DNA of 64,000 bases from an uncultured Gaiellaceae bacterium. GTDB taxonomy: Bacteria; Actinomycetota; Thermoleophilia; Gaiellales; Gaiellaceae. The position numbers and the translations under genes are program-made. Position 1 is the stretch's first letter; every line of letters starts with the position of its first letter. The notes under the pieces were generated by a model, which was not told where the DNA came from, made no database searches, and saw only the letters and a program-made list of their open reading frames with translations. This document shows, one piece after another, positions 6,937 through 64,000 of the stretch. The DNA lies in the NCBI GenBank assembly GCA_963712865.1, contig CAVQJO010000013.1, positions 190,603-254,602 on the forward strand, written 5' to 3'.

Positions 6937-7356
6937 ATGATCCGACCGGGTTCGTACAACCTTCGGGTGCTCGCGCTTGGCGTGACGACCGCGGGCGGGT
7001 TGGCGATAGGGGTTGCAGCGGCGCTCCTGTGGTACTCCCGCCGAACGAACGAGGGAGGGCCGACGGCGGCTTCGCTTCGCGACGCGAGCCTGGCGATCAT
7101 CGGAGCCGGCATCGGCCTCATGATCGGGAGTGCGCTGACGGGCTTCCTGCTCCGAGCTGCACCGTTCGTGGGCGGTGTCGCAGCTGGGAGCCTCGCCTTC
7201 ATCTTCGCGCTCGTTCCGGTGCTGCTCGTCGCGGTCCCGGATGTCCACGCCGCCGAGGTCGTCCTGGCCGCGCTCATCGCCGGCTTCCCCGTCGTCCTCT
7301 TCGTTCTCGTCGGCGCGCTGGCGGGGTCGATGCTGAGCGATCTCAGGGAGCCGTAG
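6937..7356 (+). CDS. Hypothetical small membrane protein
   Basis: 139-aa ORF with 3-4 hydrophobic helices and GC3-rich codons. Its tail overlaps the convergent add stop by 15 nt. Confidence 0.45.
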   Translation: MIRPGSYNLRVLALGVTTAGGLAIGVAAALLWYSRRTNEGGPTAASLRDASLAIIGAGIGLMIGSALTGFLLRAAPFVGGVAAGSLAFIFALVPVLLVAVPDVHAAEVVLAALIAGFPVVLFVLVGALAGSMLSDLREP

Positions 7357-8375
7357 CCCCGGCGGCCTTGCGGATGAAGCTCGCCTCGTGCCCGCGCTGG
7401 TTCGCTTCGCGGAGCTGATCCTGGCCGTGAGCGCGCCCGATGCGCTCGAGGAGCTCGAGCTCGTCGCGGAGGTGCGTCCGCATCATCTCCGGGCCCGTCC
7501 GTCGCGATCGTGAACGCGACGTCGTGCTCGAGGAACGCGTGGAAGGTCTCGCGCACCGCGGCCTCGTCGGGAAGGGCCTTCGTCAGCAGGTTCGAGGTCG
7601 GGCAGATCTCGAGCACGACGCCGGCCTCGCGGAGCAGCCGCATCAGCTCGGGGTCGCCCGCCGCGAGGATCCCGTGCCCGATCCGGTCGGGCCGCAGGTG
7701 CTCGACGACCTCGCCGATCTCCTCCGCGCCGGTCGCGCCCTCCTCGCCGACGTGGATCGTGACGCCGAGGCCGGCCTCGCGCGCGGCCTCCACCATCGGC
7801 TCGAGGCCGCGGTAGTCGTACCGCTCTCCTCCCGGTCGCGGCCCGGCCACGTCGATGCCGACGATGCCGCGCGAGGCCCAGCTGATCGCCTTCTCGACGA
7901 CGACCTCGTTCTGCCGCTGCGTGAACGTGCGGTCCATCATCAGGATCAGGCCGCAGCGAACCTGGGGGTACTCCATCGAGGCCCGGTCGAGGCCGCGGAC
8001 GGCCGCGAGGATGACGTGGTCGAGGTCACGCTCGCCGCCGCGGTTCCGCTTCATCGGGTTGAAGCGGAGCTCGAGCGTCGTGATGCGCTGCGAGCGGTAG
8101 GCGCCGCCGATGGCGCCGTGGACGGAGCGCTCGACGGCGAGCGGGGAGGACTGGATCAGCTCGGTCCAGTGGTAGATGCGGTCGAGGGCGTCGAGGTTCT
8201 CGACGCCGCGCGCGTCCGAGACGGTGACGAGCGCGTCGAACTCCCAGTAGTCCTTCACGGGCAGCGCGATGCCCTGCTCGTGCGCGAGCGACCAGAGGAT
8301 GTCGGAGGCGACGGAGCCGCCGAGGTGGGTGTGGAGCTCGGCGAGCCCCTCCGTGGACGCCGCGGCGCTGCTCAC
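7342..8375 (-). CDS. add: Adenosine deaminase, one apparent frameshift
   Basis: LAELHTHLGG...HVGEEG...ATDGP motifs. On the minus strand GGGCCC-G-GAGATGATG (about 7490) carries one extra base. Removing it restores TDGPEMMRTHLRDELELLERIG...ASFIRKAAGATAP and stop TGA at 7344-7342. The track ORF 6873..8375 is the out-of-frame read-through. Confidence 0.8.
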
Positions 8376-8992
8376 GGCGTCACGCGCTCGACGAGGTCGC
8401 GGAGCTCGGGCAGGAAGCCCGGATCGATCGTGTGCGGCAAGGGGTACTCGCGGTAGAGCAGGTCGGCGCCGGCCTCCTGGACGAACTGCCGCGCCTGGCG
8501 GCCGTACTGCACGGAGATGACGTCGTCGTAGGTGCCGTGGCCGATCGCGATCGGATGTCCGTCGAGGCCGGTGACGTCGAGCTCGAGGCCCTCCACGACG
8601 GGCAGGAACCCGGAGAGGGCGACGATCGCGGCCGGGCGGGCGGCCGCACCCCGGCCCAGGCCGAGCGCCCAGCTCATCACCGCGCCCTGCGAGAAGCCGC
8701 CCAGCACGATCGGCCGCGGCAGCTCGTCGAGCAGCCCGGACAGGAGCTCGAAGCTCGGCCAGAACGTGTCGTGATCGGGCGTCGGGATGCCCGCGAGGCG
8801 ATACCAGTGCGCGCCTCCCGGTGGCAGCGAGAGCGGCCCGCGCGGCGTCAGGCCGAGCAGCCGCCGCTCGGGATCGAGCTCGTCGAGCAGAGGGAAGAGG
8901 TCGCGCTCGTCGGCGCCGCGGCCGTGGAGGAGGACGAGACTGCCGGCCGGCTCGCCGGCCGCGGGGCGCTGGAGGCGGACTAGGTCCGCCAC
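8372..8992 (-). CDS. Phospholipase/carboxylesterase-family alpha/beta hydrolase
   Basis: LLHGRGADERDL...GGFSQGAVMS (GxSxG)...GHGTYDDV. GTG start at 8992. ATGA overlap with the add start. Confidence 0.75.
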   Translation of the reverse strand: MADLVRLQRPAAGEPAGSLVLLHGRGADERDLFPLLDELDPERRLLGLTPRGPLSLPPGGAHWYRLAGIPTPDHDTFWPSFELLSGLLDELPRPIVLGGFSQGAVMSWALGLGRGAAARPAAIVALSGFLPVVEGLELDVTGLDGHPIAIGHGTYDDVISVQYGRQARQFVQEAGADLLYREYPLPHTIDPGFLPELRDLVERVTP

Positions 8993-9905
8993 GCGGCGCG
9001 TGGATCGGGAAGCGGCGTCAGCACGGGCTCGATCCGGTCGCGAAGATGCTCGAACGCAGGCGGCAGCGAGAGCCGCTCGCCCAGGTGCTCGGCGTCCTCG
9101 TCGGCCGAGAAACCGGGGCCGAGGGTCGCGATCTCGAACAGCACGCCGCTCGGCTCGCGGAAGTAGACCGACTTGAAGTAGAAGCGGTCGATCACCGGCG
9201 TCGGCTGCATGCCCGCCTGCGCCACCCGTTCGCGCCAGGCCTCCTGCTCGGCCGACGGCGACGCCCACGCGATGTGGTGCACGGTGCCCGCGCCGCCGAC
9301 GCCGCGCTCGGCCGGCGCGGGCTCGAACGCGAAGAGCCCGCCGCGCTCCTCGCCGCGGATCTCCCACTCCGCGTCGCCGCGCGGCTCGAAGCCGAGCGCG
9401 CCCTCGAAGAGCGCGCGGCTGCGCTCGACGTCGGTCGGTGAAGGCACGGACGCCGTCGAAGCCCTGGAGCGCGAGGTCCTCCGGGATCTCGGGGTGCTCG
9501 GCGACGAGCGGCTCGTCGTCGGTCTCGCACGACCGCGAGCTCGAGCGCGACGCCCTCGGGGTCGCTGAACGAGACCCGGCCGGCCGGCCGGTCGACGCGG
9601 ACGCCCTCGTCCTGCAGCCGCTCCGCCCAGAAGTCGAGCGCGTCCTCGGAGCCGACGCGGTAGACGATCGTGTGCACCATCCCGGCGCCTGGCCGCCCGC
9701 GCCGCGCGCCCGGATACTCGAAGAAGGTGATGTCCGCGCCCGGGCTGCCGTGCTCGTCGGCGTAGAAGAGGTGGTAGACGGTCGGGTCGTCCTGGTTGAC
9801 CGTCTTCTTCACGAGCCGCTGGCCGAGCACGCGCGTGTAGAAGTCGACGTTGCGCGGCGCGTCGCCCGTGATCAGCGTGATGTGGTGGATGCCCTCGAAG
9901 CGCAT
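8980..9905 (-). CDS. Two-domain ring-cleaving dioxygenase (glyoxalase/VOC family), two apparent frameshifts
   Basis: MRFEGIHHITLITGDAPRNVDFYTRVLG (frame of track ORF 9192..10511). Middle segment ETDDEPLVAEHPEIPEDLALQGFDGVRAFT lies in a third frame. C-terminus DVERSRALFEGALGF...HHIAWAS...FYFKSVYFREPSGVLFEIAT lies in ORF 8980..9915. Junctions near 9530 and 9440. Confidence 0.7.
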
Positions 9906-9956
9906 CAGCGCCCATGATGACAAGTGCGCGGAGGTGCAGCGCTTAGACTCACCGGC

Positions 9957-11095
9957 GTGAAGGTGGGGATCGTCGTCCCGTTCTCGTGGTCGTTCTGGGG
10001 TGCGGTGGTCGAGCACGCGGAGCTCCAGGCGGCCGCGCTGCGGCGGCTCGGCGCCGACGTGCGCCTCGTGATGGGGAACGATCCGCCCGGCCAGTTCACG
10101 CGCGCGCTCCACCCGCGCGTCGGGCAGGCACGGCGAGCCGCCGCCGGAGGTGATCCCGATCGGCCGCTCGGTGATCGTGCCGGCCAACGGCTCGCTGCCG
10201 AACATCATCCTGAGCCCGCGCGCCATCCTCCGGATCCGGCGCGTGCTCGAGCGGGAGCAGTTCGACGTGCTGCACCTGCACGAGCCGATGACGCCGATCC
10301 CGTGCATCGCGGCGCTCGCGCTCTGGGACGGCCCGATGGTCGGCACGCACCATGCGAGCGGCGAGCTCGGCTGGATGCGGCTGGCGGCGCCGGTCTGGGG
10401 CTTCCTCGAGGAGCGGCTCGACCACCGGATCGCCGTCTCCGAGCAGGCGCGCGCCTCGGCGCAGCGCTGGCTTCCCGGCGAGTACGAGGTCGTGCCGAAC
10501 GGCGTCCTCATCCCGCCCGAGGCGCGACCCGGCCGGCCGCGAGCACCGCGTCGTGTTCGCGGGCCGGCACGAGCCGCGCAAGGGCCTCCAGGTCCTGCTC
10601 CGAGCCTGGCCCGAGATCCATCGCCGCACCGGCGCGCGGCTCCGCGTGGTCGGCGCCGATCCGCTCGCCGTCCGGCTCCTGCTGACGCGCCTGCGCGTGC
10701 CGGACACGGGCGTCGACGTGCTCGGCTTCCTCAGCCAGGAGGAGCTGACGGCCGAGCTCTCGTCCGCGAAGGCGCTCCTCGCGCCGTCGCTCGGCGGCGA
10801 GAGCTTCGGGATGGTGCTGACACGGGCGTTCGCCTGCGCGACGCCGGTCGTCGCGTCCGACATCCCCGGCTACCGTGACGTGATGACGCCGGACACGTCC
10901 GTTCCGGTCCCGCCCGGCGACCACGACGCGCTCGCCGACGCCGTCGAGGCGCTGCTCGAGGACGAGGAGCACCGGCAGCGGCTCGGAGCGGCCGCCCGAC
11001 GCTCGCGGTCGAGCGGTACTCGTGGGACGACATCGCGCGGCCGGCTGCTCGAGATCTACGAGGGCGTGCAGCCACGCGAGCGAGTCGCCGCATGA
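9957..11095 (+). CDS. GT4 (group 1) glycosyltransferase, about four apparent frameshifts
   Basis: VKVGIVVPFSWSFWGAVVEH..., IPIGRSVIVPANGS, RVVFAGRHEPRKG, ESFGMVLTRAFACATPVVASDIPGYRDV, LAVERYSWDDIARRLLEIYEG. These are spread over track ORFs 9924, 10150 and 10352. Junctions near 10122, 10525, 11000 and 11041. Confidence 0.75.
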
Positions 11096-11120
11096 CGCAG
11101 TCATGCGGCTCTGAGGGGGC

Positions 11121-11147
11121 ACCGGGGAACCAAGCGGTTCCCCCGGT
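11121..11147. repeat. Imperfect palindrome ACCGGGGAACC-aagc-GGTTCCCC(C)GGT just downstream of the GT4 gene
   Basis: Read directly. An 8-bp core stem GGGGAACC/GGTTCCCC shares its core with the palindrome at 11192. Possible terminator. Confidence 0.4.
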
Positions 11148-11191
11148 GGAGCGCGCCGCCGCGCAGCAGCGGCGACGGCGCGCAGGGGGTT

Positions 11192-11218
11192 CGTGGGGGA
11201 AACCGGGTTTCCCCCACG
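11192..11218. repeat. Perfect 27-nt palindrome CGTGGGGGAAACC-G-GGTTTCCCCCACG
   Basis: Read directly. 13-bp arms around a single central G, about 77 nt upstream of the 11295 start. Operator or hairpin candidate. Confidence 0.45.
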
Positions 11219-11294
11219 CGACCGAGGCTGTCCGCATCGTCCCCGGGCAAAGCCCGGAGACGAGTGCTCGAGAGCTTGGGGCGAGGGAGGCCGC

Positions 11295-12362: not shown

Positions 12363-12380
12363 CTCGGCGTCAGTCGAGCT

Positions 12381-12791: not shown

Positions 12792-12801
12792 GGGCCGGAT
12801 T

Positions 12802-13030
12802 CTACGCAGATGGCTCGGAATCGGGGAAGGGCGCAGCGGTCTCGGCGCGCCGCGCGAGCTCCTCGATCTTCCCCTGCGCCGTGTCGAGCCGCGTCAGGCA
12901 GAAGCGGAGCAGCTCCTCGCCGCGCTCCCAGAGCGCGATCGCCTCGTCGAGGCTCGCCTCGCCCCGCTCGAGCCGCTCGACGATCGACTCGAGCTCCCGC
13001 TGGGCCGATCTCGAATGTGAGCTCGCTCAC
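12802..13030 (-). CDS. xseB: Exodeoxyribonuclease VII small subunit, one apparent frameshift
   Basis: MSELTFEIG, then an extra base near 13003, then QRELESIVERLERGEASLDEAIALWERGEELLRFCLTRLDTAQGKIEEL. Stop TAG at 12804-12802. Confidence 0.75.
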
Positions 13031-14244
13031 CGAACGTCCTCCACCTGCGCGGCGAACGCGCCGTCCGCGAGCTCGACGTCGACCCGCTGCCCGGCCGCAG
13101 CGCCGCGGTCGAGCGCAGCACCCTGTTGTCCGCCCGCACGATCGCGTAGCCGCGCTCGAGCGTGCCTCGCGGTGAGAGCGCCGAGAGCCGCGCGCCCGCC
13201 TGCTCGACCGCGTTCCGGCGGCGCTCGAGCAGGAGCGCCGGGCCGCGCCGAAGCCGGTCGCGCAGCGAGTCCACGCGGCGCGTGTCGCGCTCGAGCGCCC
13301 GCCGGGTGCCGCGCTCGAGCGCGTCGTGCGAGCGGCGCAGCCGGTCTCGCTCCCGCTCGAGGGAGCGGCGGGCGCCTCGCTCGAGCGCGGCGTGCGCCCG
13401 AACGAGCTCGCGGCGCAGCTCCTGGGCGTCCGGGCACGACGAGCTTGCCGGCCGCCGTCGGCGTCGAGGCGCGAACGTCGGCGGCGAGGTCGCAGAGCGG
13501 GGTGTCCTGCTCGTGCCCGACCGCCGAGACGACCGGCACGGCACAGGCGGCGACGGCGCGGACGACACGCTCGTCGCTGAACGGGAGCAGGTCCTCGAAG
13601 CTGCCGCCGCCGCGCGTGAGGACGATGACGTCGACGCCGGGCTCGCGCTCGAGCGCCTGCAGCGCGTCCACGATGCCGAGGGGCGCGCGCGGGCCCTGGA
13701 CGAGCGTCTCCGCGACGAGCACGCGTGCGGGCGGGAAGCGGCTCTGGATCGTCGCCAGCACGTCCTGCTTGGCCGCCGCGTCGCTGCCGGTGACGACGCC
13801 GATCCGCCGCGGGAACCGCGGCAGCGCGCGCTTCCGCGACTGCTCGAAGAGGCCGTCGGCCGCGAGCGCCTGCTTGAGCCGTTCGATCGCGGCGAGATGC
13901 GCGCCGAGCCCGAACCGCTCGATCGCGAGCACGCGCAGGCGGAACTCGGCCTTCGCCGCGTAGAGCTCGGGCCGGCCGAAGACGTGCACGCGCTCGCCGT
14001 CCGCGAGGTCGAGCCGGAGGGCGTCGAACGTCCGGCGCGGCATCGACGCCGGCAGGCAGGCGCCGTCGGCCGGGTCCTTGAGCGTGAAGAACACGCTGCC
14101 CCAGCGCTCGTGCCGCCGAAGCTCCGTCACCTCGCCCTCGATCCAGAGCGTCGGGAGCCGGGCGAGCCAGTCGGCGACGCCGCGGTTGAAGCCCGCGACG
14201 GAGTAGACCTTGCGGTCGCCGTAGAGGAGCGGCTCGACCTTCAC
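13027..14244 (-). CDS. xseA: Exodeoxyribonuclease VII large subunit, two apparent frameshifts
   Basis: VKVEPLLYGDRKVYSVAGFNRGV...WIEGEVTELRRH...IGVVTGSDAAA...LTRGGGSFEDL...VGHEQDTPLCDLAADVRASTPTAAGKLVVP. Coiled-coil part lies in track ORF 12894..13568. Junctions near 13435 and 13105. GTGA overlap with xseB. Confidence 0.8.
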   Translation of the reverse strand: MKVEPLLYGDRKVYSVAGFNRGVADWLARLPTLWIEGEVTELRRHERWGSVFFTLKDPADGACLPASMPRRTFDALRLDLADGERVHVFGRPELYAAKAEFRLRVLAIERFGLGAHLAAIERLKQALAADGLFEQSRKRALPRFPRRIGVVTGSDAAAKQDVLATIQSRFPPARVLVAETLVQGPRAPLGIVDALQALEREPGVDVIVLTRGGGSFEDLLPFSDERVVRAVAACAVPVVSAVGHEQDTPLCDLAADVRASTPTAAGKLVVPGRPGAAPRARSGARRARARRPPLPRAGARPAAPLARRARARHPAGARARHAPRGLAARPASARPGAPARAPPERGRAGGRAALGALTARHARARLRDRAGGQQGAALDRGAAAGQRVDVELADGAFAAQVEDVR

Positions 14245-14287
14245 CCTCGACGGCCCTCGTTGGCGGACGCGCAGCCGCGGGCGGAAG

Positions 14288-18317: not shown

Positions 18318-19227
18318 GTGCTGCTCGACCGCGCGATCGTCTCTGTCCTCCCGGCCGTGCCGCGCCCGCTCGTGCAGCGGCTCTCGGCGCGGTACATCGC
18401 CGGGCCGACGCTCGCGGACGCCCGTCACGTCGTCTCCGAGCTGAACGCCGCACGGGAAGCTCGCCACCGTCGACGTCCTCGGCGAGGAGATCACGCAGGC
18501 CTCCGAGACCGAGGCGATCGCCGACGAGTACGTGGCCGCGCTCGACGCGTTCGAGCGCGAACGGGCTCGACGCGAACGTGAGCGTCAAGCCGACCGCGCT
18601 CGGGCTCAAGCTCGACTACGACCTCTGCAAGGCGAACGTCGAGCGCGTGATCGCGGCGGCCGAGCCGACGAACCGCTTCGTCCGCATCGACATGGAGGAC
18701 GCGTCGACGACGGACGACACGCTGCGCCTCTTCCGCGAGCTGCGCGACGAGGGTCACCCCCGCGTCGGGCCGGTGCTCCAGGCGTCGCTGAAGCGGACGG
18801 TGGACGACGCCGCCGTCGCTCGCCGGCGCGAGCGTGCGCCTGTGCAAGGGCATCTACATCGAGTCCGAGGAGATCCAGTTCCAGGACGACGAGTCCGTGC
18901 GCGTGAGCTTCGTCAACTCGCTCGAGGCGCTCCTCGACGGCGGCTGCTACGCGGCGGTCGCGACCCACGACGACTGGCTCGTCGAGCAGGCGCTGCGGCT
19001 CATCCACGAGCGGACTCTCGCCCGCGACGGCTACGAGTTCCAGATGCTCCTCGGCGTGCGGCCCGAGCTCGGCGACCGGCTCGTGCGCGAGGGCCATCGC
19101 CTCCGGATCTACGTGCCCGTACGGCCGGAAGTGGTACGAGTACTCGCTGCGGCGGCTGCAGGAGAACCCGAAGGTGGCCGGCTACATCGCCACCGACACG
19201 ATCAACCGCTTCATTCCGGGACGCTGA
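18318..19227 (+). CDS. Monofunctional proline dehydrogenase, four apparent frameshifts
   Basis: KLATVDVLGEE, VSVKPTALGL, RIDMEDASTT, QASLKRT, VRLCKGIYIE, YEFQMLLGVRPEL, then YVPYGRKWYEYSLRRLQENPKVAGYI after the last junction. Single extra bases near 18466, 18570, 18825 and 19125. Confidence 0.75.
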
Positions 19228-21412: not shown

Positions 21413-22331
<919 letters not shown>

Positions 22332-24909: not shown

Positions 24910-26250
24910 ATGAGCCCGCAGCGGCGAACTGCGCTCGTCTCGGTCGCCGCGGCGGCGGTGCTCCTCGTCCTCAAGCTGGCGACCGGGCTCGCGAGCGGCA
25001 GCCTCGGGCTGGTCTCCGAGGCGCTCCACTCCGGGACAGACCTCGTCGCGGCGCTGCTGACGTTCTTCGCTCTCGGCGTCGCCGGCCGCCCGGCGGACGA
25101 GGGCCACCAGTACGGGCACGGCAAGGCCGAGCACCTCGCGGCGCTCGCGGAGGCGGCGGTGCTCGCGGTCGTCAGCGTCGCGGTGGCCGGCGTTCGCGGT
25201 CGCCCGCCTCACCGGCGCGATCGAGACCGAGGTCGAGACCGCGTGGTGGACGTTCGCGGTCGTCGGGCTCGTGATCGCGATCGACGTGACGCGGACTCTC
25301 GTCTCCTACCGGGCGGCACGGCGGTACCACAGCGAGGCCCTGCTCTCGAACGCGCTCCACTTCGGCAGCGACCTGGCCGGCACGCTCGCCGTGCTCGCCG
25401 GGCTCGATCGCCGCCGCGAGCGGGCTTCCCCGCAGGGGACTCGTTCGCCGCGCTGTTCGTCGCCGGCGCTCGTCGTGCTCGCCGCGGGCCGCCTGATCAG
25501 GCGGAACGTCGACGTGCTCATGGATCAGGCGCCCGCCGATGCCGAGGAGGCCGCGCGTCAGGCGATCGCGCGTCCGTGCCGGCCGTCGAGCTCTCGCGCC
25601 TTCGCCTCCGCCAGGCGGGCGGGCGGACGTTCGCGGACGTCGTGATCGAGGTCTCGCCGGCGGACGCCGTCGCCCAGGGGCACGCCCTCGCAGACCGGGT
25701 CGAGGACGCGGTCGAGCGGGTGCTGCCCGGGAGCGACGTCGTCGTGCACGTCGAGCCGCGCGTCGGGGAGGCCGCGCTGCGGGAGCGTGCCCACGCCGCC
25801 GCTCTCTCCGTGCCGCGCGTGCGGGAGATCCACAACCTCGCCCTCGTCACCGTCGACGGCGCGGTCGAGCTTTCGCTGCATCTGAAGCTTCCGGGAGAGC
25901 TCCCGCTCGAGGAGGCGCACGACATCGCCGAGCAGGTCGAGGCGGCGATCCGGGCGGAGGTGCCCGAGGTCGGCTCGGTGCAGACGCATCTCGAGCCGCT
26001 CTCGGAGCCGAGCCTCGCCGTCGAGCTGGCGCCGGGCGACGTGGCGTCGATCGTGCGGGGCGTCGTCGGTGCGCCGCCGCGTGAGGTGCGCGTGCTGCGG
26101 ACGGCCGACGGCCTCGTCGCGTTCGTCACGCTCGGATTCGATCCGGAGAGCACGCTCGCCGCCGCGCACGCGCGGGCAAGCGAGGTGGAGGACCGCCTGC
26201 GCGCCGAGCACCCGGAGATCGCGGACGTGATCGTCCACACCGAGCCGTAG
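24910..26250 (+). CDS. Cation diffusion facilitator (CDF) transporter with three tandem C-terminal cytoplasmic-domain repeats, four apparent frameshifts
   Basis: SEALHSGTDLVAAL, HQYGHGKAEHLAAL, NALHFGSDLAGTLAVL. Junctions near 25190, 25410, 25465 and 25565. The C-terminus contains three similar modules ending VVVHVEP, VQTHLEP and VIVHTEP. Confidence 0.75.
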   Translation: MSPQRRTALVSVAAAAVLLVLKLATGLASGSLGLVSEALHSGTDLVAALLTFFALGVAGRPADEGHQYGHGKAEHLAALAEAAVLAVVSVAVAGVRGRPPHRRDRDRGRDRVVDVRGRRARDRDRRDADSRLLPGGTAVPQRGPALERAPLRQRPGRHARRARRARSPPRAGFPAGDSFAALFVAGARRARRGPPDQAERRRAHGSGARRCRGGRASGDRASVPAVELSRLRLRQAGGRTFADVVIEVSPADAVAQGHALADRVEDAVERVLPGSDVVVHVEPRVGEAALRERAHAAALSVPRVREIHNLALVTVDGAVELSLHLKLPGELPLEEAHDIAEQVEAAIRAEVPEVGSVQTHLEPLSEPSLAVELAPGDVASIVRGVVGAPPREVRVLRTADGLVAFVTLGFDPESTLAAAHARASEVEDRLRAEHPEIADVIVHTEP

Positions 26251-26251
26251 C

Positions 26252-26658
26252 TCAGTCGAGCCAGTTCTCGAGCCGGAGCTCGGGGACGCGTTCGAAGTGC
26301 CGCGTGTTGCCGGTGACGAGGGTCGCGTCACGCGAGAGGGCGATCGCGGCGATGCGGAGATCCGGCTCGGCGAGCGGCGTGCCCGGCGTGCTCGAGCGAC
26401 GCCTTCAGCTTCGGCAAAGCAGCGCGCCGCGGGCTCATCGAACGGCAGCACGTCGTGTGCGGACGAGACGATCTCCGTCGATCCGGTCGGCGAGCGGCTC
26501 GGAGCCGATCCGCGCCGCGCCGTAGAGCAGCTCCGCGAGCGTGATCGCGGTCGTGCACTGCTCGGCGGGGTCGGTGCGTGCAAGCCGCGCGTACGAGTTC
26601 GAGCGGAGGGAGCGGGACGCAGGAGCGCGCTGAGCACGTCGGTGTCGAAGCAGTACAT
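26252..26658 (-). CDS. vapC: PIN-domain toxin VapC, about five apparent frameshifts
   Basis: MYCFDTDVLSALLRP..., RTDPAEQCTTAITLAELLYGAARIGSEPLADRIDG, EIVSSAHDVLPFDEPAARCFAE, TPLAEPDLRIAAIALSRDATLVTGNTRHFERVPELRLENWLD. The pieces cycle through all three frames. The 407-nt span becomes 402 nt if five bases are removed. Confidence 0.7.
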
Positions 26659-26662
26659 CGCG

Positions 26663-26941
26663 TCAGGTCGAGGCGCGGCGGTGGGCGGTCGAGCTCCACA
26701 GCACGGCTCGCGACGACCTCGGCCATCACGTCGTCGAACTGCGGGCCACTCGGCGAGCGCACCGACGAAAGCGGCCAGGCCGACATGCGGCCCGGATGCC
26801 GAACGCGCCGACTCAGGGGGAACGAGCCCGAGGACAGGTCGGCCTCGCCGAGCAACGACGAACCGCTCTCCGGCACCGACGCGCTCGATGAGCTCGGAGA
26901 AGCGGCGCTTGGCGTCGGCCACGCTTCAGCACTTCGGTCAT
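26663..26941 (-). CDS. vapB: Phd/YefM-like (or VapB) antitoxin, about two apparent frameshifts
   Basis: ATG 26941. VADAKRRFSELIERVGAGERFVVARRGRPVLGLVPPE, then FDDVMAEVVASRAVELDRPPP. Ends a few nt before the vapC ATG. Confidence 0.6.
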
Positions 26942-33981: not shown

Positions 33982-34796
33982 GTGCGGCTCTGCATGTTCA
34001 CCCCGATCGACCGCGATCTCGAGCGCGGCTGGCCCGGCCGGCTCGAGGGCGACCGCGTCGTCCAGCTCGCGGCGCAGACGCTGCAGTCGTTCTTCACCGG
34101 CGGCTCGTCGGCTCGCGAGCACGCGGAGTTCCCGCTCGACGAGGTGCGGCTGCTCGCGCCGGTGCTCGAGCCGCCCGCCGTGCGCGACTTCTACGCCTTC
34201 GAGCAGCACGTGCGGACGGCGCGGGCGTCGCGCGGGCTCGAGATGCCGCCCGAGTGGTACCGCCAGCCGGTCTTCTACTTCTCGAACCCGGCCGCGATCT
34301 ACGGCCCCGACGCAGGAGGTGCCCTATCCCGAGGGCACGGAGGAGCTCGACTACGAGCTCGAGGTCGCGGCGATCATCGGCGCTCGGCGGTGAGATCGGC
34401 GGCTTCACGATCATGAACGACTGGTCGGCGCGCGATCTCCAGCGCGCCGAGATGAGCGTCGGCCTCGGGCCTGCGAAGGGGAAGGACTTCGCCACCTCGC
34501 TCGGGCCGGTCGTCGTCACGCCGGACGAGTTCCCCGGCGACGAGGCCGAGATGGTCGCGCGCGTGAACGGCGAGGAGCGCTCGCGCGGCAACCTGCGCGA
34601 CCTCTACCACTCCTGGGAGCGGATCCGGGAGCACGCGGCGCGGAACACCGTGCTCCGGCCCGGCGACGTGCTCGGCTCGGGCACGGTCGGGACGGGCTGC
34701 ATCCTCGAGTTGGGCGACGGGCGCTGGCTGCAGCGCGGCGACGTGGTCGAGCTCGAGGTGGAGGGCATCGGCGTCCTCCGCAACACGGTCGCCTGA
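33982..34796 (+). CDS. Fumarylacetoacetate hydrolase (FAH)-family protein, two apparent frameshifts
   Basis: VFYFSNPAAIYGPDA-EVPYPEGTEELDYELEVAAIIG-GEIGGFTIMNDWSARDLQ...GPAKGKDF...GDVLGSGTVGTGC. Extra bases near 34312 and 34388. Confidence 0.75.
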
Positions 34797-43003: not shown

Positions 43004-43824
43004 ATGGACGCTCGCCCGATCGGCGTGTTCGACTCCGGCGTCGGCGGGCTCACCGTGCTGCACGAGTGCCTGGTGACGCTGCCGCACGAGGACTTCGTCT
43101 ACCTCGGCGACCACGCCCGGCTGCCGTACGGCCCGCGGCCGCTGCCCGAGCTGCGCCGCTTCGCGCACGAGATCGGCGCCTACCTCGAAGGCCAGGACGT
43201 GAAGCTGATCGTCGTCGCCTGCAACTCGGCGACGGCGGCAGCGCTCCCCGGCCTCCAGACCGAGCTGCGCGTGCCCGTCGTCGGCGTGATCACGCCGGAG
43301 GCGCACGCCGCCGTCCTCGCGACCCGCAACCGGCGCGTCGGCCTGCTCGCGACGCAGGCCACGGTCACCGCGGGCCGCTACGCACGAGCTCGTGGGTGCG
43401 CTCGACGCCGGCGTGCGGCTCGTCGCCGTGCCCTGCCCCGAGCTCGTGCCGCTGATCGAGAGCGACGATCCCGTTCGGCGAGGCGACGACGGCGGCGGTG
43501 CGCCGCTACGCGGCGCCGCTCAAGGAGGCCGGCGTCGACACCGTCATCCTGGGCTGCACGCACTACCCGCTGATCCGGCCGATCCTGCAGCGCGTCTTCG
43601 GCCGCGGCGTGACGCTCGTCTTCTCGGCCGAGGAGACCGGGCGCGAGGTGGCGGAGACGCTCGCCCGCAAGCGGATCGAGAACGACCGGAGCGCGAGGGC
43701 GACTACCGCTTCCTCACGACCGGCGACCCGGACTGCCTTCCGGTCGATGGGGAAGCGCTTCCTGCAGCTGCCGATCGGCGACGTCGAGCACGTCGAGATC
43801 GCGACGCTCGAGGCGGCGGCATGA
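43004..43824 (+). CDS. murI: Glutamate racemase, about four apparent frameshifts
   Basis: [57 protein letters not shown]. Junctions near 43385, 43475, 43700 and 43735. Confidence 0.8.
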
Positions 43825-44542
43825 GCACGCGGGACGACGGCCGCACGCGCGACGACGAGCTGCGGACGCTCGACCTCGTCCCCGACTTCATCGAGCTCGC
43901 GCACGGCTCGGTGCTCTTCTCGCAGGGAAAGACGCGCGTCCTCTGCACGGCGACCGTCGAGGAGAGCGTGCCGCGGTGGCTGGCGCGGTCCGGCCGCGGC
44001 TGGATGACCGCGGAGTACTCGCTGCTGCCGGCGTCGACGGGCGAGCGCACCCAGCGCGAGGCGTCGCGCGGCAAGCAGGGCGGCCGCACGGTGGAGATCC
44101 AGCGGCTGATCGGGCGCGCGCTGCGCAGCGTCTGCGACTTCGAGGCGCTCGGCGAGCGGACGCTCTGGCTCGACTGCGACGTGCTCCAGGCCGACGGCGG
44201 CACGCGGTGCGCCGCGATCTCGGGCGCGTACGTGGCCGCCCGGCGCGCGCTCGACCGGTTCGGCCTCTCGAAGGCGCTCAGCGGGTCGGTCGCGGCGGTG
44301 TCGGTCGGCATCGTCGACGGCCGCCCGCTGCTCGATCTCGACTACTCGGAGGACTCGACCGCGGAGACCGACATGAACGTCGTCATGACGCGCGAGGGCC
44401 TGCTCGTCGAGGTGCAGGCCACCGCCGAGCGCGATCCCTTCTCGCGCGAGCGGCTCGACGAGATGCTCGACCTCGCGGCGGGTGGGATCGAGGAGATCGC
44501 GCGTCGCGCAGGACGACGCGATCGCCGTCGCCGCGTGCCTGA
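43821..44542 (+). CDS. rph: Ribonuclease PH, one or two apparent frameshifts near the 3' end
   Basis: ATGA overlap with mur[78 protein letters not shown]. Confidence 0.85.
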
Positions 44543-45213
44543 GCTCACCACCTTCGAGGCGGTGCTGCGGCTGCTGCTCGCTGCCGGCGCTCGGCGGCGT
44601 GATCGGGTTCGAGCGGGAGCTGCGCGACCACGAGGCCGGCTTTCGCACGCACCTGATCGTCTCGCTCGGCGCCTGCGTCTTCACGCTCGTCTCGGCGTAC
44701 GCCTGGACGGACTGGACGTTCTCGACGGCCGAGCGGCGTCGTCTTCGACCCGACGCGGATCGCGGCGCAGATCGTCACCGGCATCGGCTTCCTCGGCGCC
44801 GGCGCGATCATCGTCCGCGGCATCTCCGTCCGCGGGCTCGACGACGGCCGCGACGCTCTGGGTGTGCGCGGCGATCGGCATGGCTGCCGGCACCGGCTAC
44901 TACCTCGTCGCGATCGCGTCGACCGCGCTCGTGCTCGTCTCGCTCGGGCCGCTGAAGCTCTTCAGCACGCGCTTCGTCGGCCGCGTGCGGCCGGAGGAGG
45001 CCGAGCTCGCCGTCAATCTCAAGCCCGGACGGCGCCGCGGCGAACGTGCTGGCGCGGATCGAGGAGCTCGGCGCCGTCGTCAACTCGGTCGAGTTCGGCG
45101 ACGAGCGGACGATCGACATCGTCCTGCGCGCCTCGCGGCGATCCGAGTCGGCGCTGATCGCCGAGGAGCTCGCGAAGCTCGACGACGTCGAGCGGCTGCA
45201 ATGGCGCCCGTGA
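44535..45213 (+). CDS. mgtC: MgtC/SapB-family membrane protein, about four apparent frameshifts
   Basis: [68 protein letters not shown]-terminal soluble domain ...IDIVLRAS...[15 protein letters not shown]. Confidence 0.65.
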
Positions 45214-45807
45214 AGGGCGTCCTCTGCTCGGGCAACCCGCACAAGCTGGCCGAGCTCCGTGCGGCGCTGCCCGGCTGGGAGCTCGAGCTGCTCGCCGCGC
45301 ACGACTATCCCGGAGGAGACCGGCGCGACCTACTACGAGAACGCCGTCGCGAAGGCGCTCTACGGCCGACGCGTGGGCGACCCGGCGGCGTGGATGCTCG
45401 GCGAGGACTCGGGCATCGAGGTCGTCGGCGCTCGACGGGCGCCCGGGCATCAGCCTCCGCGCGCTGGGCGGAGCGACGGCGTCGCGGCGCTGCTCGACGA
45501 GCTCCGCGGGCGGGAGGACCGGCGGGCGCGCTACGTGTGCGAGCTCGTCGCGCTCGGGCCGGCGGGCGAGGAGCTGCGCGGCACGGGCGTCCTCGAGGGC
45601 ACGATCGCCGAGGCGCGGCGCGGCGACGAGGGCTTCGGCTACGACCCGATCTTCGTCCCGCTCGGCGAGTCGCGGACGGTCGCGGAGCTCGGCAACGCCT
45701 GGAAGCGCACGAACTCGCATCGCGCGCGGGCGGCGGCGGCGCTGGCGCGTCCTAGGCGAGGCCGGCGACCTCCTGCTCCTCGCGCCGCGAGCCGAGGAAC
45801 CAGTTGA
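45201..45807 (+). CDS. rdgB: Non-canonical purine NTP pyrophosphatase (RdgB/HAM1), about three apparent frameshifts; 3' end uncertain
   Basis: [12 protein letters not shown], extra base in TATCCC-G-GAGGAG near 45310 restoring [49 protein letters not shown]. Confidence 0.75.
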
Positions 45808-48188: not shown

Positions 48189-49839
48189 ATGCAGCTCGCC
48201 TTCGACGCCGCCGACCGGCTCGTCGAGCTCGTCCAGAGCCGTCGCGGGCCGGTCGTCGCGGAGGAGGCGGCACGCTCGCTCTACGCGCTCCGCCACGTCC
48301 CGGCGGGGCTCGCGCGCGAGCTCCTCGACGACGTCGTCGCCGGCGACTCGCGCCTCACCTGGCGCGGCGGCTCGGTCGGGCTCGCCGATCCGCCGGGCGC
48401 GAAGCTTCTCGTCGAGGACGCGACCTACGTCGTCGTCGACCTCGAGACGACCGGGCTGCGCCCGGGCAGCTCGGCGATCTGCGAGATCGGCGCCGTGCGC
48501 GTGCGCGGGCTCGAGCTCGAGGAGACCTACCAGACGCTCGTGAATCCCCGGCAGCCGCTGCCGCCCGCGATCGGGGCGCTGACCGGCATCGACGCGCGCG
48601 AGCTGCGCGGGGCGCCGCCGGCGGAGCTGGCGGTGCGCCGGCTGCTCGAGTTCGCGGGCGACGCCGTGCTCGTGGCGCACAACGCGCGCTTCGACATCGG
48701 CTTCCTCGACGTGGAGGTCGAGCGCCTGACGGGGAGGCGGCTGGCGGCGCCGGTCGTCGACACGGTCTGGCTCGCGCGGCGCCTGCTGGAGGGCCGCACG
48801 CGCCGCGCCGGGCTCGCGTCGCTCGCGCACTTCTTCGGCACCGCGGCGCGGCCGTGCCACCGCGCCCTGCCGGATGCGGAGGCGACGGCGGAGATCCTCC
48901 TGCGGCTGATCGGGCTCGCCCAGGAGCGCGGCGCGGCGACGGTCGCCGAGCTGGTGGAGCTGTCGGCGCCTCGCGCGCGCCGGCTGGCGGCGAAGCGGTT
49001 CCTCGCCGCCGGCGCGCCGCCTCGTCCGGGCGTCTACCTCTTCCACGACCGCAACGGCCAGGTGCTCTACGTCGGGCGTGCGCGGGACCTCCGTGCCCGG
49101 CTGCGCTCGTACTTCCAGACCGACCGCCAGCGGCCCGCGGTCGAGGCGGCGCTCGGCGCGGTCGAGCGGATCGAGTGGCGTGTCCTCGGCTCGGAGCTCG
49201 AGGCGGCCCTCGAGGAGCTGCGCCTCCTGCGCGAGCTGCGGCCGCCGGCGAACGCCCGCAGCACGCGTCCCGACCGCTACGTCTACCTGCGCCGCCGCGG
49301 CGCCGGCTTCGTGGTGTCGGAGCAGCCGACGCCGCTCGGGCCGATCAAGAGCCGCCGCCTCGCCCAGCGTGCGGCCCGGGCGCTCGACGGCGTCCCCGGG
49401 GGCTTCGAGGGCGACGACCTCGCCGCCGCGCTGCCGCCGCTGCGGGCCAAGCTGCGGCGCCTCGCCCGCGAGCAGCGCTTCGAGGACGCGGCGAGGCTCC
49501 GCGACCGGCTCGCCGCGCTCGAGCAGGTGGTCGCGCAGCTGGCCGAGCTCCGAGCGCCTGCGCGAGCTGCGCGTCTGCCTCCTCGTGCCGGCCGCCGACG
49601 ACCGGTTCCGGCGCGCCTTCTTCGTCAGCGGTGGCCGGGTCGTCGCCGAGCGGACGCTGCTGCCGGGCGAGGCGGGCCGGGCCGAGCTCGAGGCGGGTCT
49701 CGCCGCCGCGGCGCGGGCCGAGCCGTCCGCCGCGCCCGAGGATCTCGACGAGCTGCTGCTGGTCGGGCTCGCGCTGCGCACGCCGCCGCCCGAGCTGCGG
49801 GCGATCCCGCTCGACGCGCTCGCCGCCCGCGCCGCCTGA
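48189..49839 (+). CDS. DnaQ-like DEDD 3'-5' exonuclease fused to a GIY-YIG (UvrC/Cho-like) nuclease and UVR domain, one apparent frameshift
   Basis: VVVDLETTGL, LVAHNARFDIGFL, HRALPDAEATAE (Exo I-III). PGVYLFHDRNGQVLYVGRARDLRARLRSYF (GIY-YIG). EQRFEDAARLRDRLAALE (UVR). Extra base near 49549. Confidence 0.8.
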
Positions 49840-49854: not shown

Positions 49855-50785
49855 ATGGCGCAGGATCTCGACGCGGGCCCGCGGCTGGCGACGGTCGCCT
49901 TCGCAGACCGGCTCGCCGAGGCGGTCGAGCGGAAGCGCAGCCAGCTCGTCGTCGGGCTCGATCCGCGGCTCGACCTGCTGCCGGTCGAGCTGCGCGGCGA
50001 GTCCGTGCTCGGCCGCCCCGAGGCAGCCTCGGCCTATGCGCGCTTCTGCTGCGGACTCGTCGATGCCGTGGCGCCGTATGTGATCGCGGTGAAGCCGCAG
50101 AGCGCGTTCTTCGAGGGCCTCGGCGCGGACGGCGTCGCCGCCTTCGAGCGGGTCTGCGCGTACGCCCGGGACGCCGGGCTTGCTCGTGATCGCCGACGCG
50201 AAGCGCGGCGACATCGGCTCGACCGCCAGGGCGTACGCCACCGCCTTCCTCGAACCGCGGGACGGCCTGCCTCCGCTCGCGGACGCGCTCACCGTCAACA
50301 CGTATCTCGGGCACGACTCGGTCGAGCCGTTCCTGCAGGCGTGCAGGCTGCACGGCGCGGGCATCTTCTGCCTCGTGCGCACGTCGAACGCGGGTGCGAC
50401 CGACGTGCAGGAGCTGACCCTGTCGAACGGGCTGCGGGTGTGGCAGCAGGTCGCGCGGCTCGTCGCGAGCTGGGGCGAGGACCTCGTCGGCGAACGAGGG
50501 CTGTCGAGCGTCGGCGCCGTGGTCGGCGCGACCGTGCCGCGAGCAGTCGGCCAGGCGCGGCGGCTGCTGCCGCAGTCGGTCCTGCTCCTGCCGGGCGTCG
50601 GCGCGCAGGGCGCGACGCCGGCGGACGTCGCCCGGGCGTTCACGAGCGGCCCCGCCAGTGCGATCGTGACGGCGTCCCGCTCCGTCATCTACGCCTACCG
50701 CACCGGCACGTCCGACTGGCGCGCGGCCGCCGCGGCCGAGGCCGCCCGCCTGCGCTCCGACGTCTGGGCGGCATCCGGATGGTGA
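49855..50785 (+). CDS. pyrF: Orotidine 5'-phosphate decarboxylase (long type 2), one apparent frameshift
   Basis: LVVGLDP, AVKPQSAFFE, then LVIADAKRGDIGSTA after a junction near 50178, LLLPGVGAQGA. Confidence 0.8.
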
Positions 50786-53272: not shown

Positions 53273-54758
<1,486 letters not shown>

Positions 54759-54759: not shown

Positions 54760-56340
54760 TGGGCCAGGTCGTGCCGCTGCCGGTTCCGGAGCCCGCTCCC
54801 GAGGAGCGGCCCGTGCTCGTGCTCGACCTCGGCGGCCAGTACTCGCAGCTGATCGCGCGGCGCGTCCGCGAGGCGCGCGTCTACTCCGAGCTCGTGCCGT
54901 ACCGGCTCACCGCCGACGAGGTGCGCGCGCGCGAACCCGCTCGCGCTGATCCTCTCCGGCGGCCCCGCGTCCGTGTACGCCGACGACGCGCCGAAGGTCG
55001 ACCCGGCCGTCTTCGAGCTCGGCATCCCCACGCTCGGCATCTGCTACGGCGCCCAGCTGCTGGCGCTCGAGCTCGGCGGCGCCGTCGAGCGCACGGGGAC
55101 GTCCGAGTTCGGCAAGACCCAGCTCGAGGGCGGCGCCGGCGCGCTGTTCGAGGGCTTGCCGGAGGAGCAGACGGTCTGGATGAGCCACCGCGACACGGTC
55201 ACCGCGCCGCCCGAGGGCGCGACCGTGACCGGGCGCTCCTCCTCGACGCCGGTGGCGGCCTTCGAGGATCAACGGAGAGGCGGCTCTACGGCGTCCAGTT
55301 CCACCCCGAGGTGCGCCACACGCCGCACGGCCAGGACCTGCTGAAGAACTTCCTCTACGGCGTCGCCGGCGCTCCGCCCGCCTGGACGGCCGCGGCCGTG
55401 ATCGAGGAGCAGGTCGAGCGGATCCGCGCGCAGGTCGGCTCGGAGCGCGTCATCTGCGGCCTCTCGGGCGGCGTCGACTCCGCCGTCGCGGCGCTGCTCG
55501 TCTACAAGGCGGTCGGCGACCAGCTCACGTGCGTCTTCGTCGACCACGGCCTCCTCCGCGAGAACGAGGGGGAGCAGGTGGTCGAGACGTTCGGCGGCCA
55601 CTTCCACGTGCCGCTCGTCCACGTCCAGGCGCAGGATCGCTTCCTCGGCCGGTTGGACGGCGTCACCGACCCGGAGGAGAAGCGCAAGCTCGTCGGCGAG
55701 GAGTTCATCCGCGTCTTCGAGGAGGAGGCGCGCAAGCTCGGGAGACGTGCGGTTCCTCGTCCAGGGCACGCTCTACTCGGACGTGATCGAGTCGGGCGGC
55801 TCCGACGACGGCGTCGCCGCGAAGATCAAGTCGCACCACAACGTCGGCGGCCTCCCCGCCGACATGCGGATGGAGCTCGTCGAGCCGCTGCGCCTGCTCT
55901 TCAAGGACGAGGTGCGGCGCGTCGGCGAGGAGCTCGGCCTGCCCGAGCGGATGGTCTGGCGGCAGCCGTTCCCCGGCCCCGGGCTCTCGATCCGCATCAT
56001 CGGCGAGGTGACGCGCGAGCGGCTCGAGATCCTGCGCGCCGCGGACGCGATCCTGCAGGAGGAGGTGCGCCGCGCCGGGCTCTACCGCGACCTCTGGCAG
56101 AGCTTCGCGGTGCTGCCGGCGATCCGCTCGGTCGGCGTCCAGGGCGACGAGCGGACGTACGCCTACCCGATCGTGATCCGGGCCGTCACCTCCGAGGACG
56201 CGATGACCGCGGACTGGGCGCGCCTGCCGTACGACCTGCTCGAGACGATCTCGAGCCGGATCATCAACGAGATCCCGGGCGTGAACCGCGTCGCGCTCGA
56301 CATCAGCTCCAAGCCGCCCTCGACGATCGAGTGGGAGTGA
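54759..56340 (+). CDS. guaA: GMP synthase (glutamine-hydrolysing), three apparent frameshifts
   Basis: TGATG overlap with gua[52 protein letters not shown] (P-loop), [27 protein letters not shown]. Junctions near 54933, 55275 and 55743. Confidence 0.9.
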
Positions 56341-61299: not shown

Positions 61300-62571
61300 G
61301 TGACGCGCCGCTACTTCGGAACCGACGGCGTCCGCGGGGTCGTCGGCGGCGACCTCACGGCCGATCTCGTGGAGCGCCTGGGTCGCGCCTCGGCGGTGTG
61401 GTCAGGACGCGGGCGCGTCTTCGTCGGGCGCGACACCCGCGCGTCCGGCGCCGAGCTCGAGGAGGCCTTCGCGAACGGCGTCGTCTCGGCCGGCGGCAAC
61501 GCCGTGCTGGCCGGCATCCTGCCGACGCCCGCGGTCGCACTGCTCGCGCTCGACCTCGGCGTCGTCATCACCGCGTCCCACAACCCGCCGGAGTACAACG
61601 GCGTCAAGTTCTTCGACCGCGACGGCAACAAGCTGACCGACGAGGCCGAGGAGGAGATCGAGGCACTGGTCGACGGGCCAGAGAGCGGCGCCGGCGGCGG
61701 CAGGATCGACCGCGTCGAGATCGCGACCGACAGCTACCTGGAGCACATCCTCGAGCGGTTCGGCTCCGACCTGACCGGCCTGCGGATCGCCGTCGACTGC
61801 GCGAACGGCGCCTACTCCGACATCGCGCCCGCAGCCTTCGAGCAGCTCGGCGCCGACGTGACGCCGCTCGGGGTCGAGCCGGACGGGACGAACATCAACG
61901 ACGGCTGCGGCGCGACGGATCTCAGCCTGCTCCAGGAGACCGTGCGCGCCGGCGGCCACGATCTCGGCGTCGCCTTCGACGGCGACGGCGACCGCCTGCT
62001 CGCCGTCGACCAGCACGGCGAGCCCGTGGACGGCGACCAGATCCTCGCCATCCTCGCGCTCGACCTCGAGGTCGACCAGGTGGCGGTGACGGTGATGACG
62101 AATCTGGGGTTCCACCGGCTGATGGAGGAGCGCGGCGATTCGGGTCGAGACGACGCCCGTCGGCGACCGCTACGTGCTCGAGGCGCTGCGGCGGCACGGC
62201 GGCATCCTCGGCGGCGAGCAGTCCGGGCCACGTCATCTGCCTGCGCGACCACGTCACCGGCGACGGGCTCGCTGCCGCCCTCCTCCTCTGCGGCGCTCTG
62301 GAGGGCCGCACGCTGGCGGAGGCGGCCGCCGTGATGCCCCGCTTCGCGCAGTCGAAGGAGAACATCCGCGTCAGCAGAATGGAGGTGCCGCGAGAGCGCG
62401 ATCGCGGAGGCGAAAGCGCTCAACGAGCGGCTCGACGGCCGCGGCCGCGTGCTCGTGCGAGCCTCCGGCACGGAGCCGCTGATCCGCGTGCTCGGCGAGG
62501 CGGAAACGGCGGCAGAAGCGGCTGCGCTGTGTGGTACCATCGCCACCCTCGTCAGAAGGGAGCTCGGCTGA
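61300..62571 (+). CDS. glmM: Phosphoglucosamine mutase, three apparent frameshifts
   Basis: GTG 61300, 7 nt after [31 protein letters not shown] (phosphoserine loop), [43 protein letters not shown]. Junctions near 62137, 62228 and 62395. Confidence 0.85.
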
Positions 62572-62675
62572 TCCGCGACGCAGCGGGTCGCAGTAACCGG
62601 GCTCTCGTTGCGTTTTGCAGGGCGTTTGCGGGTAGACCCGGCCTGCGGCTCGGGGGTGACGAAAGGAGCTCCAGC

Positions 62676-64000
62676 GTGTGCGGGATCATCGGCTACGTCG
62701 GACCGAGACAGTGCAAGTCGCTTCTCCTCCAGGGCCTCGAGCGGCTGGAGTACCGCGGCTACGACTCGGCGGGAATCGCGCTCCGTGAGGCCGACGGGCT
62801 CGCGTACATGCGGGCGGTCGGCAACCTCCAGAACCTGAAGGACGCCGCCGGGCCGAACAGCTCCCGCTCCTCGCACGGGCTCGGGCACACGCGCTGGGCG
62901 ACGCACGGCGCCGTCACCGAGGCCAACGCACATCCGCTCGCCGGCTGCGACGCGGCGAAGCTGTCCATCGTCCTGAACGGGATCGTCGAGAACTACCGCG
63001 AGCTGCGCGAGCGCCTGCTCGAGGCCGGCCACACCTTCACGTCCGAGACCGACGCCGAGACCGTCTGCCATCTGATCGAGGACGAGTACGACGGCGACCT
63101 GACCGAGGCCGTGCGGCGGACCGTGGCGCATCTCGAGGGCCATTTCACCTTCGTGGCGATCCACTTCGACCACCCGGACATCCTCGTGGGCACCCGCAAC
63201 CAGACGCCGATGGTCGTCGGCATCGGCGACGGCGAGATGTTCCTCGCGTCGAACGCCGCCGCCTTCCTTCGCGAGACCAAGCTCGTGCAGTTCCCCGACG
63301 ACCACGACATCGTCACGGTGACCCCCGCGGGCGCGACGTTCCTGCGCCCGGACGGCGCTCGCGGTCGAGCACGAGCAGCGTCGAGCTCGACTGGGACGAC
63401 GAGGGCGCCGAGAAGGGCGGCTACGAGACGTTCATGCTGAAGGAGATCTACGAGCAGCCCGAGGCCGTCGCCGAGACGATCGGCGACCGCGTGCGCCACG
63501 GCAGGCTCGTGCTCGAGGGGCTCGGGCTCGACGAGCAGGAGGTTCGCGACCTCCGCCGCATCGTCATCCTCTCGGCGGGCACCTCGTACCACGCCGCCGT
63601 CGTCGGGCGCTACGTGATCGAGGAGTGGGCCCGGATCCCCGTGGAGCCGGACATCGCGTCGGAGTGGATCTACCGGAACCCGGTGCTCGACGACGACACG
63701 CTCGTGATCGGCATCTCGCAGTCCGGCGAGACGCGGGACACGATCCAGGGCATGCGCCTCGCGCGGGAGAAGGGCGCGCGCACGGTCGCGATCACGAACA
63801 TGATGGGCTCGCAGATCACGCGCGAGGTCGACACGGTGCTCTACACGCGCGGCGGGCTCGAGGTCGGCGTCGCCGCGTCGAAGACGTTCACGGCGCAGGT
63901 GGCGCTCCTCTATCTCGTCGCGCTCAAGTTCGCGGAGGTGCGCGGGACGCTGCCGCCGAAGGAGCGCGAGTTCATCCTCGACCAGGTCTACGAGCTGCCG
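62676..64000 (+). CDS. glmS: Glutamine--fructose-6-phosphate aminotransferase, 3'-truncated by the window edge, two apparent frameshifts
   Basis: AAAGGAG RBS, then GTG-TGC: (M)CGIIGYVG (N-terminal nucleophile Cys), RLEYRGYDSAG, HTRWATHG, EKGGYETFMLKEIYEQP, GISQSGETRDT. Extra bases near 63353 and 63378. Confidence 0.9.

Follow-up and report, generated by a model that had tools for sequence, protein, structure and literature searches.

The question raised by a 64,000-nt stretch of an uncultured Gaiellaceae bacterium (contig CAVQJO010000013.1, positions 190,603 to 254,602; hereafter the window) is whether the single-base frameshifts that interrupt most of its genes beyond about 7.3 kb belong to the organism or to its assembly. 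The initial annotation of this stretch, made from the letters, had favored uncorrected indel errors, and our comparisons uphold that reading: intact genes in conspecific DNA, the lack of nonsense codons, substitutions concentrated at third codon positions, and frameshift rates that track the sequencing platform all point to assembly errors. From these comparisons of sequence we consider it almost certain that the frameshifts are uncorrected assembly indels rather than a biological feature, and that the real genes are intact.

The window has a G+C content of 72%. A protein from its middle found its best relatives in Gaiellaceae/Gaiellales metagenome-assembled genomes (MAGs) of the Thermoleophilia, and the nearest entries in a set of species-representative genomes, at 80% protein identity, were MAGs of the Microflora Danica (MFD) project. 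Two contigs supplied conspecific DNA. ENA ERZ25039576 contig_64913 (loci L166 and L168) is 96–97% identical to window 1–15738 and 19235–39624, and ERZ25039565 contig_102089 (loci L167 and L169) is 97% identical over 37.2–64 kb; the interval 15.7–19.2 kb lies outside the conspecific coverage. For protein-level evidence, we wrote a frameshift-aware protein-versus-DNA aligner based on dynamic programming (DP), which tolerates a single inserted or missing base. More than 100 related contigs supplied its reference open reading frames (ORFs), pooled from three sets: relatives in a genome collection, a JGI contig spanning the 7.3-kb boundary, and 80 soil-metagenome contigs around hppD. An event was counted as supported if it was called by at least two references and by at least 60% of the references covering the site. 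The sequence covered by DP after position 7343 amounted to 39.8 kb.

A frame plot of the G+C content at third codon positions (GC3) showed one stable phase per gene in 1–7.3 kb, and beyond that point a phase that changed every few hundred bases, very often by a +1 step. A codon-usage Viterbi segmentation divided the sequence beyond 7.3 kb into same-strand coding segments only 1–2 nt apart, and did so up to the window end. In its seven-state form it made 129 same-strand frame switches, four of which fell in the first 8 kb, followed by 5–16 in each 4 kb; ordinary gene boundaries in clean relatives account for ~0.2–0.6 switches per kb. The explicit frameshift state of the first segmentation gave zero shifts, since leaving a gene and re-entering it was cheaper, and we used its segmentation alone. 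Frameshift-aware alignment, which had been proposed as a check on the number of junctions, yielded 57 multi-reference frameshifts and 30 single-reference events over 7343–64000, not a handful. Support was often unanimous (e.g., 48/48 references at 25192, 27/27 at 22254, 13/13 at 49551 and 10/10 at 55740). The net types of the 58 supported events, a count that includes a spurious call at 6877, were +1 (42), −1 (13) and +2 (3).

Direct alignment to the conspecific DNA identified at least 142 window-specific insertions of a length not divisible by three in 53 kb (15, 71, 48 and 8 by successive interval, the first two against contig_64913), and at least 11 window-specific deletions confirmed by other relatives. 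Against contig_64913, the DP events showed up as 1–2-nt gaps without exception in 7.3–15.7 kb and with a single exception in 19.2–39.6 kb. The GC3 plot, the Viterbi segmentation, DP and conspecific DNA thus agree that the frames are broken from ~7.3 kb to the window end, as the initial annotation had described. Its manual tally of about 100 junctions, which rightly placed the number far above a handful, was too low, the true count being ~1.5 times that figure. Judged from these alignments, the true indel density in the block that begins at ~7.3 kb is about 3 per kb, and the window divides into two parts:

Positions 1..7342: clean block with intact genes (full-length Pfam domains in single frames; no coding frameshift by DP).
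Positions 7343..64000: error-laden block with ~3 indels per kb of a length not divisible by three, mostly single extra bases; it continues past the window end.

The sole DP call within 1–7342, at 6877, lies upstream of the start codon of an HD-GYP gene. Against L166, the clean block has one window-specific gap only, which is paired with an adjacent gap in L166. At the downstream rate at least ~13 events would be expected in this block, and the probability of a 7.3-kb stretch without any event at 2–3 per kb is <1e-5. We considered a chimeric contig join at 7.3 kb and rejected it, because the genes on either side (GH114, HD-GYP, small ORF, add, hydrolase, glyoxalase) follow one another in the same order in the conspecific L166 and in the more distant relatives L081 and L084; the boundary is not a misjoin of unrelated genomes.

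The initial annotation had named junctions in add, guaB, hmgA, rdgB, an exonuclease gene, xseB and glmS. All of these were reproduced, some on weaker evidence, and they are listed below with the other broken genes; fractions give the references in support over those covering the site.

7489..7496, minus strand: add (adenosine deaminase), first junction, +1 (DP; gap against L166, where add is intact with 342 aa). The junction reads CCGGGCCC in the window and CC-GGCCC in the conspecific.
9436..9528, minus strand: glyoxalase-family gene, +1 at 9436 and 9526 (DP; gaps against L166).
10122..11041, plus strand: GT4 glycosyltransferase, +1 at 10122, +1 at 10524, −1 at ~11000 and +1 at 11037-11041 (DP, with L081 as the reference at 90% aa identity; gaps against L166).
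13005..13009, minus strand: xseB, +1 (DP; gap against L166).
13086..13434, minus strand: xseA, −1 at ~13086-13106 and +1 at 13430-13434 (DP; gaps against L166).
18447..19116, plus strand: proline dehydrogenase, +1 at 18450, 18563, 18815 and 19116 (14/14, 14/14, 16/16 and 17/17 references); its Pro_dh identity was taken from the annotation of the conspecific L168.
21953..22257, minus strand: two +1 insertions, at 21964 and 22256 (25/25 and 27/27 references; gaps against L168).
25188..25577, plus strand: cation-efflux gene, extra bases at 25188, 25409, 25419 and 25468, with two nucleotides inserted at 25571 (41-48 references). The L168 gene is intact, with 444 aa, and the gaps match the window junctions.
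26381..26924, minus strand: PIN-domain gene region with ~14 clustered single-base indels (gaps against L168; Viterbi fragmentation). The PIN gene of L168 is intact, with 155 aa.
34312..34391, plus strand: fumarylacetoacetate hydrolase, two +1 (27/28 and 27/27 references; gaps against L168).
35226..35603, plus strand: hmgA, +1 at 35226/35227 and +1 at 35600-35603 (13/13 and 10/10 references; gaps against L168).
43382..43734, plus strand: murI, +1 at 43382, +1 at 43470, −1 at 43684 and +1 at 43734 (each by all of the 10-11 covering references).
43392..45755, plus strand: chimeric 787-aa ORF in which murI, rph, an MgtC-like gene and rdgB are each represented by in-frame pieces (Pfam for RNase_PH and MgtC; DP coordinates for murI and rdgB).
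45306..45312, plus strand: rdgB (Ham1-like), +1 (DP).
49550..49551, plus strand: DEDD-exonuclease/GIY-YIG gene, +1 (13/13 references). The letters at 49551 are CTCCGAG in the window and CT-CGAG in relatives.
50176..50181, plus strand: pyrF (OMP decarboxylase), +1 (9/9 references; gap against L167).
53295..53610, plus strand: guaB, +1 at ~53295-53300 (nine codons in) and +1 at 53604-53610 (5/5 references at the second site). Evidence at the first site is weaker, consisting of the N-terminal reading VNFELDRGF and a gap against L167.
54927..55743, plus strand: guaA, +1 at 54933, a net −1 made by two extra bases at 55269-55276, and +1 at 55740 (9-10 of 9-10 references).
62136..62389, plus strand: glmM, +1 at ~62139, ~62224 and 62387 (Pfam domains I-IV in four frames).
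63353..63380, plus strand: glmS, two +1 ~20 nt apart, at ~63353-63361 and ~63378 (between the GATase and SIS domains).

The chimeric nature of the 787-aa ORF and the breakage of essential genes had both been noted from the sequence, and both are borne out here. By DP, Pfam frames or DNA gaps, guaB, guaA, murI, glmM, glmS and pyrF, all essential and single-copy, are broken, the first five repeatedly. A second chimera, a 529-aa ORF at 54759-56348, lies over guaA, and only ~70 of its residues fit GMP synthase domains. At the window junctions the genes of contig_64913 are intact; these include add, the GT4 glycosyltransferase (378 aa), xseB, xseA, HppD, the cation-efflux gene and the fumarylacetoacetate hydrolase. 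Scans of the window for tRNAs and Rfam families found nothing, so RNA genes could not be used as an independent error check.

Contig_64913 has a set of interruptions that it alone carries. Within L166 7355-9512 (window 2016–4157) there are 19 single extra bases, ~9 per kb, which fragment the DUF3492 glycosyltransferase and the epimerase of L166; the window is intact there, and the L166 flanks look clean. These mirror-image blocks in the window and L166 indicate that each assembly has interruptions of its own, grouped in blocks. Contig_102089 is also error-laden, at ~2–2.5 per kb, with its own set of extra bases.

Relatives assembled from short reads, recognized by their MEGAHIT or SPAdes contig names, served as controls; the same pipeline called 0–0.17 events per kb in them, all with weak support. 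The Nanopore-only MAG L046 (MFD00962.bin.2.40), which belongs to the same group, gave 23–37 events, or 2.8–3.1 per kb, and its 28 +1 and 8 −1 shifts show the same insertion bias as the window. Other MFD loci (L001, L003, L008 and L011) were much cleaner, at 0–0.2 per kb, so that the problem lies with a particular genome or region and is not catalogue-wide. Four MFD loci from Gaiellales/Actinomycetes (L019, L022, L017 and L018) had 1.1-2.5 same-strand switches per kb, as against 0.14-0.5 in clean loci; judged by frame-switch density alone, these four likely carry the same artefact.

What kind of error is this? We took the spectrum from the DNA-level alignments. Placement of the inserted base at the protein level misassigns the base (e.g., at 9436 and 13009) and was discarded; it had suggested many A/T insertions, and was overruled by alignment to the 97%-identical conspecific. 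Among 76 precisely placed single-base insertions, 26% (20/76) extend a same-base neighbor, as against 54% under the null, and 41% create a CpG, as against 13%. The change from GGC-CTC to GGCGCTC, for example, was seen three times. The indels are not concentrated in homopolymer runs, and none of the unambiguous protein-level cases lies in a run of three or more. The statement in the initial annotation that the junctions are not confined to homopolymers therefore holds. Its statement that most inserted bases are G or C is correct in number (80%) but barely exceeds the composition (73% G+C), and the compensating pairs that it remarked on do occur (10999/11040, 43684/43734 and 42845/42803), though about as often as random placement would predict. 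Almost all gaps are 1–2 nt in size. The 19 errors of L166 itself bear the same signature, 16% of them extending a homopolymer and 53% creating a CpG. A candidate junction motif, CCCG/CGGG, was dropped when its apparent enrichment proved to be about that expected from composition.

Two biological accounts would take the frameshifts as real. Under mass pseudogenisation, the genome would be undergoing reductive decay; many genes are indeed broken, and a few of the breaks are common to the second conspecific assembly. Decay would also have had to strike glmM, glmS, murI, guaA and guaB repeatedly, and to leave more than 150 frameshifts without nonsense codons or larger disruptive deletions. We found no internal nonsense codon in ~15,500 corrected codons, and the nine stops that were flagged all lay upstream of true starts. 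One-base corrections restore end-to-end alignment to relatives at 60–90% identity, and identity across the junctions is 75–90%. When codons were read in piecewise frames, 71–78% of the substitutions against the conspecifics fell at the third position, an excess that indicates that the proteins are under purifying selection before as well as after every junction. Further evidence against decay comes from the cleaner conspecific, with its intact genes at the same sites, from the abutment of 7.3 kb with zero events on 57 kb with ~3 per kb, from insertions that do not resemble slippage, and from other long-read MAGs, which show the same pattern at different positions, as short-read ones do not. 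We regard mass pseudogenisation as very improbable. In the other account, the junctions are sites of programmed ribosomal frameshifting or transcriptional slippage. The preponderance of +1 shifts and the recurrence of a few sites in a conspecific assembly are compatible with such recoding, which we nevertheless give a next to negligible probability. The junction contexts are heterogeneous and share no common slippery motif; neither the orthologues of more than 100 relatives nor the clean conspecific carry the window shifts; and a density of ~3 per kb would demand several efficient shifts of a typical gene. At some of the recurrent sites, moreover, the inserted letters differ between assemblies.

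These recurrent sites are one of several observations that weigh against a wholly artefactual origin or leave it less direct. The initial annotation had proposed looking for the same interruptions in sister genomes, and they are not shared, except for 5–6 junctions whose sites coincide with ones in the error-laden L167/L169, as against ~0.4 expected by chance. The sites are 49551, 55740, 40967, ~62139 and ~62224 in glmM, and ~63378 in glmS. At 49551, L169 has the same CTCCGAG as the window, and the extra base is absent from eight more distant relatives; the two glmM insertions are identical in both assemblies; and at 55740, 40967 and glmS ~63378 the inserted letters differ between the assemblies. 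In addition, a spectrum dominated by insertions and not linked to homopolymers departs from the textbook profile of Nanopore errors. The errors were deduced from comparison rather than from reads, and the same is true of the sequencing platform and of the cause of the boundary between clean and error-laden sequence.

The recurrent sites could mean that nearly all of the frameshifts are artefact and that a small subset, common to conspecific assemblies made independently, are genuine mutations of the lineage. The best candidate would be 49551, with its identical letters in L169 and its location in the non-essential exonuclease/GIY-YIG gene, and the excess of coincident sites over chance speaks for the same view. 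However, L167/L169 is itself error-laden, three of the shared sites fall in the essential genes glmM and glmS, the differing letters at three shared sites suggest an error hot spot over inheritance, and recurrence is to be expected of context-specific consensus errors. We consider this mixed origin unlikely. The recurrent sites are probably instances of consensus error tied to sequence context, in which base modification may play a part. We see a slim chance for a more particular version, in which they mark a Gaiellaceae DNA-modification motif that derails the Nanopore consensus or, far less likely, real +1 frameshifts conserved in the lineage.

Read as uncorrected assembly errors, the frameshifts mean that the consensus from ~7.4 kb onward retains base-calling and consensus errors at ~3 per kb, about three-quarters of them spurious single extra bases and the remainder missing bases. 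The extra bases are non-templated, seldom lengthen a homopolymer, and often convert C-N to CGN or N-G to NCG. Every such error moves the frame, leaving naive ORF and gene calls truncated or chimeric. The block pattern may have arisen from locally poor read support, or from interference by a mixture of strains during long-read consensus building or polishing. The platform was most likely Nanopore only, with Flye and Medaka, as for the long-read catalogue from Microflora Danica (MFD-LR). It is plausible that the window, and the conspecific contigs with their Flye-style names and ENA ERZ accessions, belong to the MFD-LR project.

There is no biological discovery in the frameshift block, and its consequences are practical. 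ORFs, gene calls, pseudogene counts, completeness and proteins taken from this contig are corrupted between 7.3 and at least 64 kb, and gene calls cannot be trusted until re-polishing because the indels break nearly every gene. Chimeras such as the ORF at 43392–45755 and the false 529-aa 'guaA' would spread into protein databases. Fragmentary products of the window are already present in a public protein collection, as are its intact proteins (L13, S9, GH114, epimerase, HppD and others), entered there from NCBI and ENA on a contig of 469,542 bp. For long-read MAGs of high-GC soil Actinomycetota, the window illustrates that errors can be block-wise within one contig. Since the insertions are not linked to homopolymers, homopolymer-aware filters would miss errors of this kind. 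The MFD-LR authors used coding density to look for Nanopore-associated errors in their MAGs (PMC12313526). At 72% G+C, where wrong frames stay open, neither coding density nor ORF length gives a strong check; in low-GC genomes coding density does work.

The intact genes of the clean block are as follows:

406-3591: DUF3492+GT4 glycosyltransferase, intact (Pfam).
~3575-4648: epimerase, intact.
4645-5733: GH114, intact.
5727-6866, minus strand: HD-GYP, intact.
6937-7356: small membrane ORF, intact.

Positions 406-5733 (L166 3636-11089) form a Pel/GAG-like exopolysaccharide cluster comprising the DUF3492+GT4 (PelF-like) glycosyltransferase, the NAD-dependent epimerase and GH114. It is preceded, in the conspecific, by Agd3-like CBM87 and carbohydrate-esterase genes, and followed by the GAF/HD-GYP c-di-GMP phosphodiesterase.

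Within the error-laden block, the homogentisate pathway is represented by hppD (23552-24652), the fumarylacetoacetate hydrolase (33979-34790) and hmgA (34810-36002). The first of these is intact by chance, and the other two carry two shifts each. Two longer intergenic insertions relative to contig_64913, of 30 nt (24658-24687) and 13 nt (37695-37707), probably reflect true differences between strains and not errors. The palindrome CGAACATATGTTCG (48161-48174), 12-15 nt upstream of the fused DEDD-exonuclease/GIY-YIG gene, is kept in the relatives L005, L008, L010, L011 and L169. Two instances of the pattern CGAAC-N4-GTTCG are present in the window, as against 0.11 expected. We take the palindrome to resemble the actinobacterial LexA/SOS box, and its position and conservation suggest that the gene may be under SOS control.

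How does the window compare with known systems? In Mycobacterium leprae and in recent obligate symbionts, frameshifts occur together with nonsense mutations, deletions and relaxed selection, essential genes are spared, and the lesions are shared among strains. The window is like these decaying genomes only in its many frameshifted genes, and lacks the other traits of decay. Programmed +1 frameshifting, as in prfB, takes place at a single site with a defined motif that is conserved in orthologues. The window is like prfB in having one extra base between two frames, and unlike it in having more than 150 sites without a motif that are absent from orthologues.

The closer likeness is to a sequencing artefact. 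Gene-fragmenting indels are recognized as an artefact of long-read assembly in two reports (PMC12007338, PMC9262707). Like assemblies with this artefact, the window has a few single-base indels per kb, which leave truncated or chimeric ORFs in conserved genes. The indels of this artefact are likewise absent from the short-read assemblies of relatives, and they can be removed by polishing. The window differs from the classic description of homopolymer indels in being insertion-dominated (~3:1), homopolymer-depleted, CpG-creating and strongly block-wise. The MFD-LR catalogue is Nanopore-only, and its contigs were built by Flye (--meta --nano-hq) and then polished once with Medaka (PMC12313526); its MAG L046, with ~3 events per kb and the same +1 bias, resembles the window in both respects.

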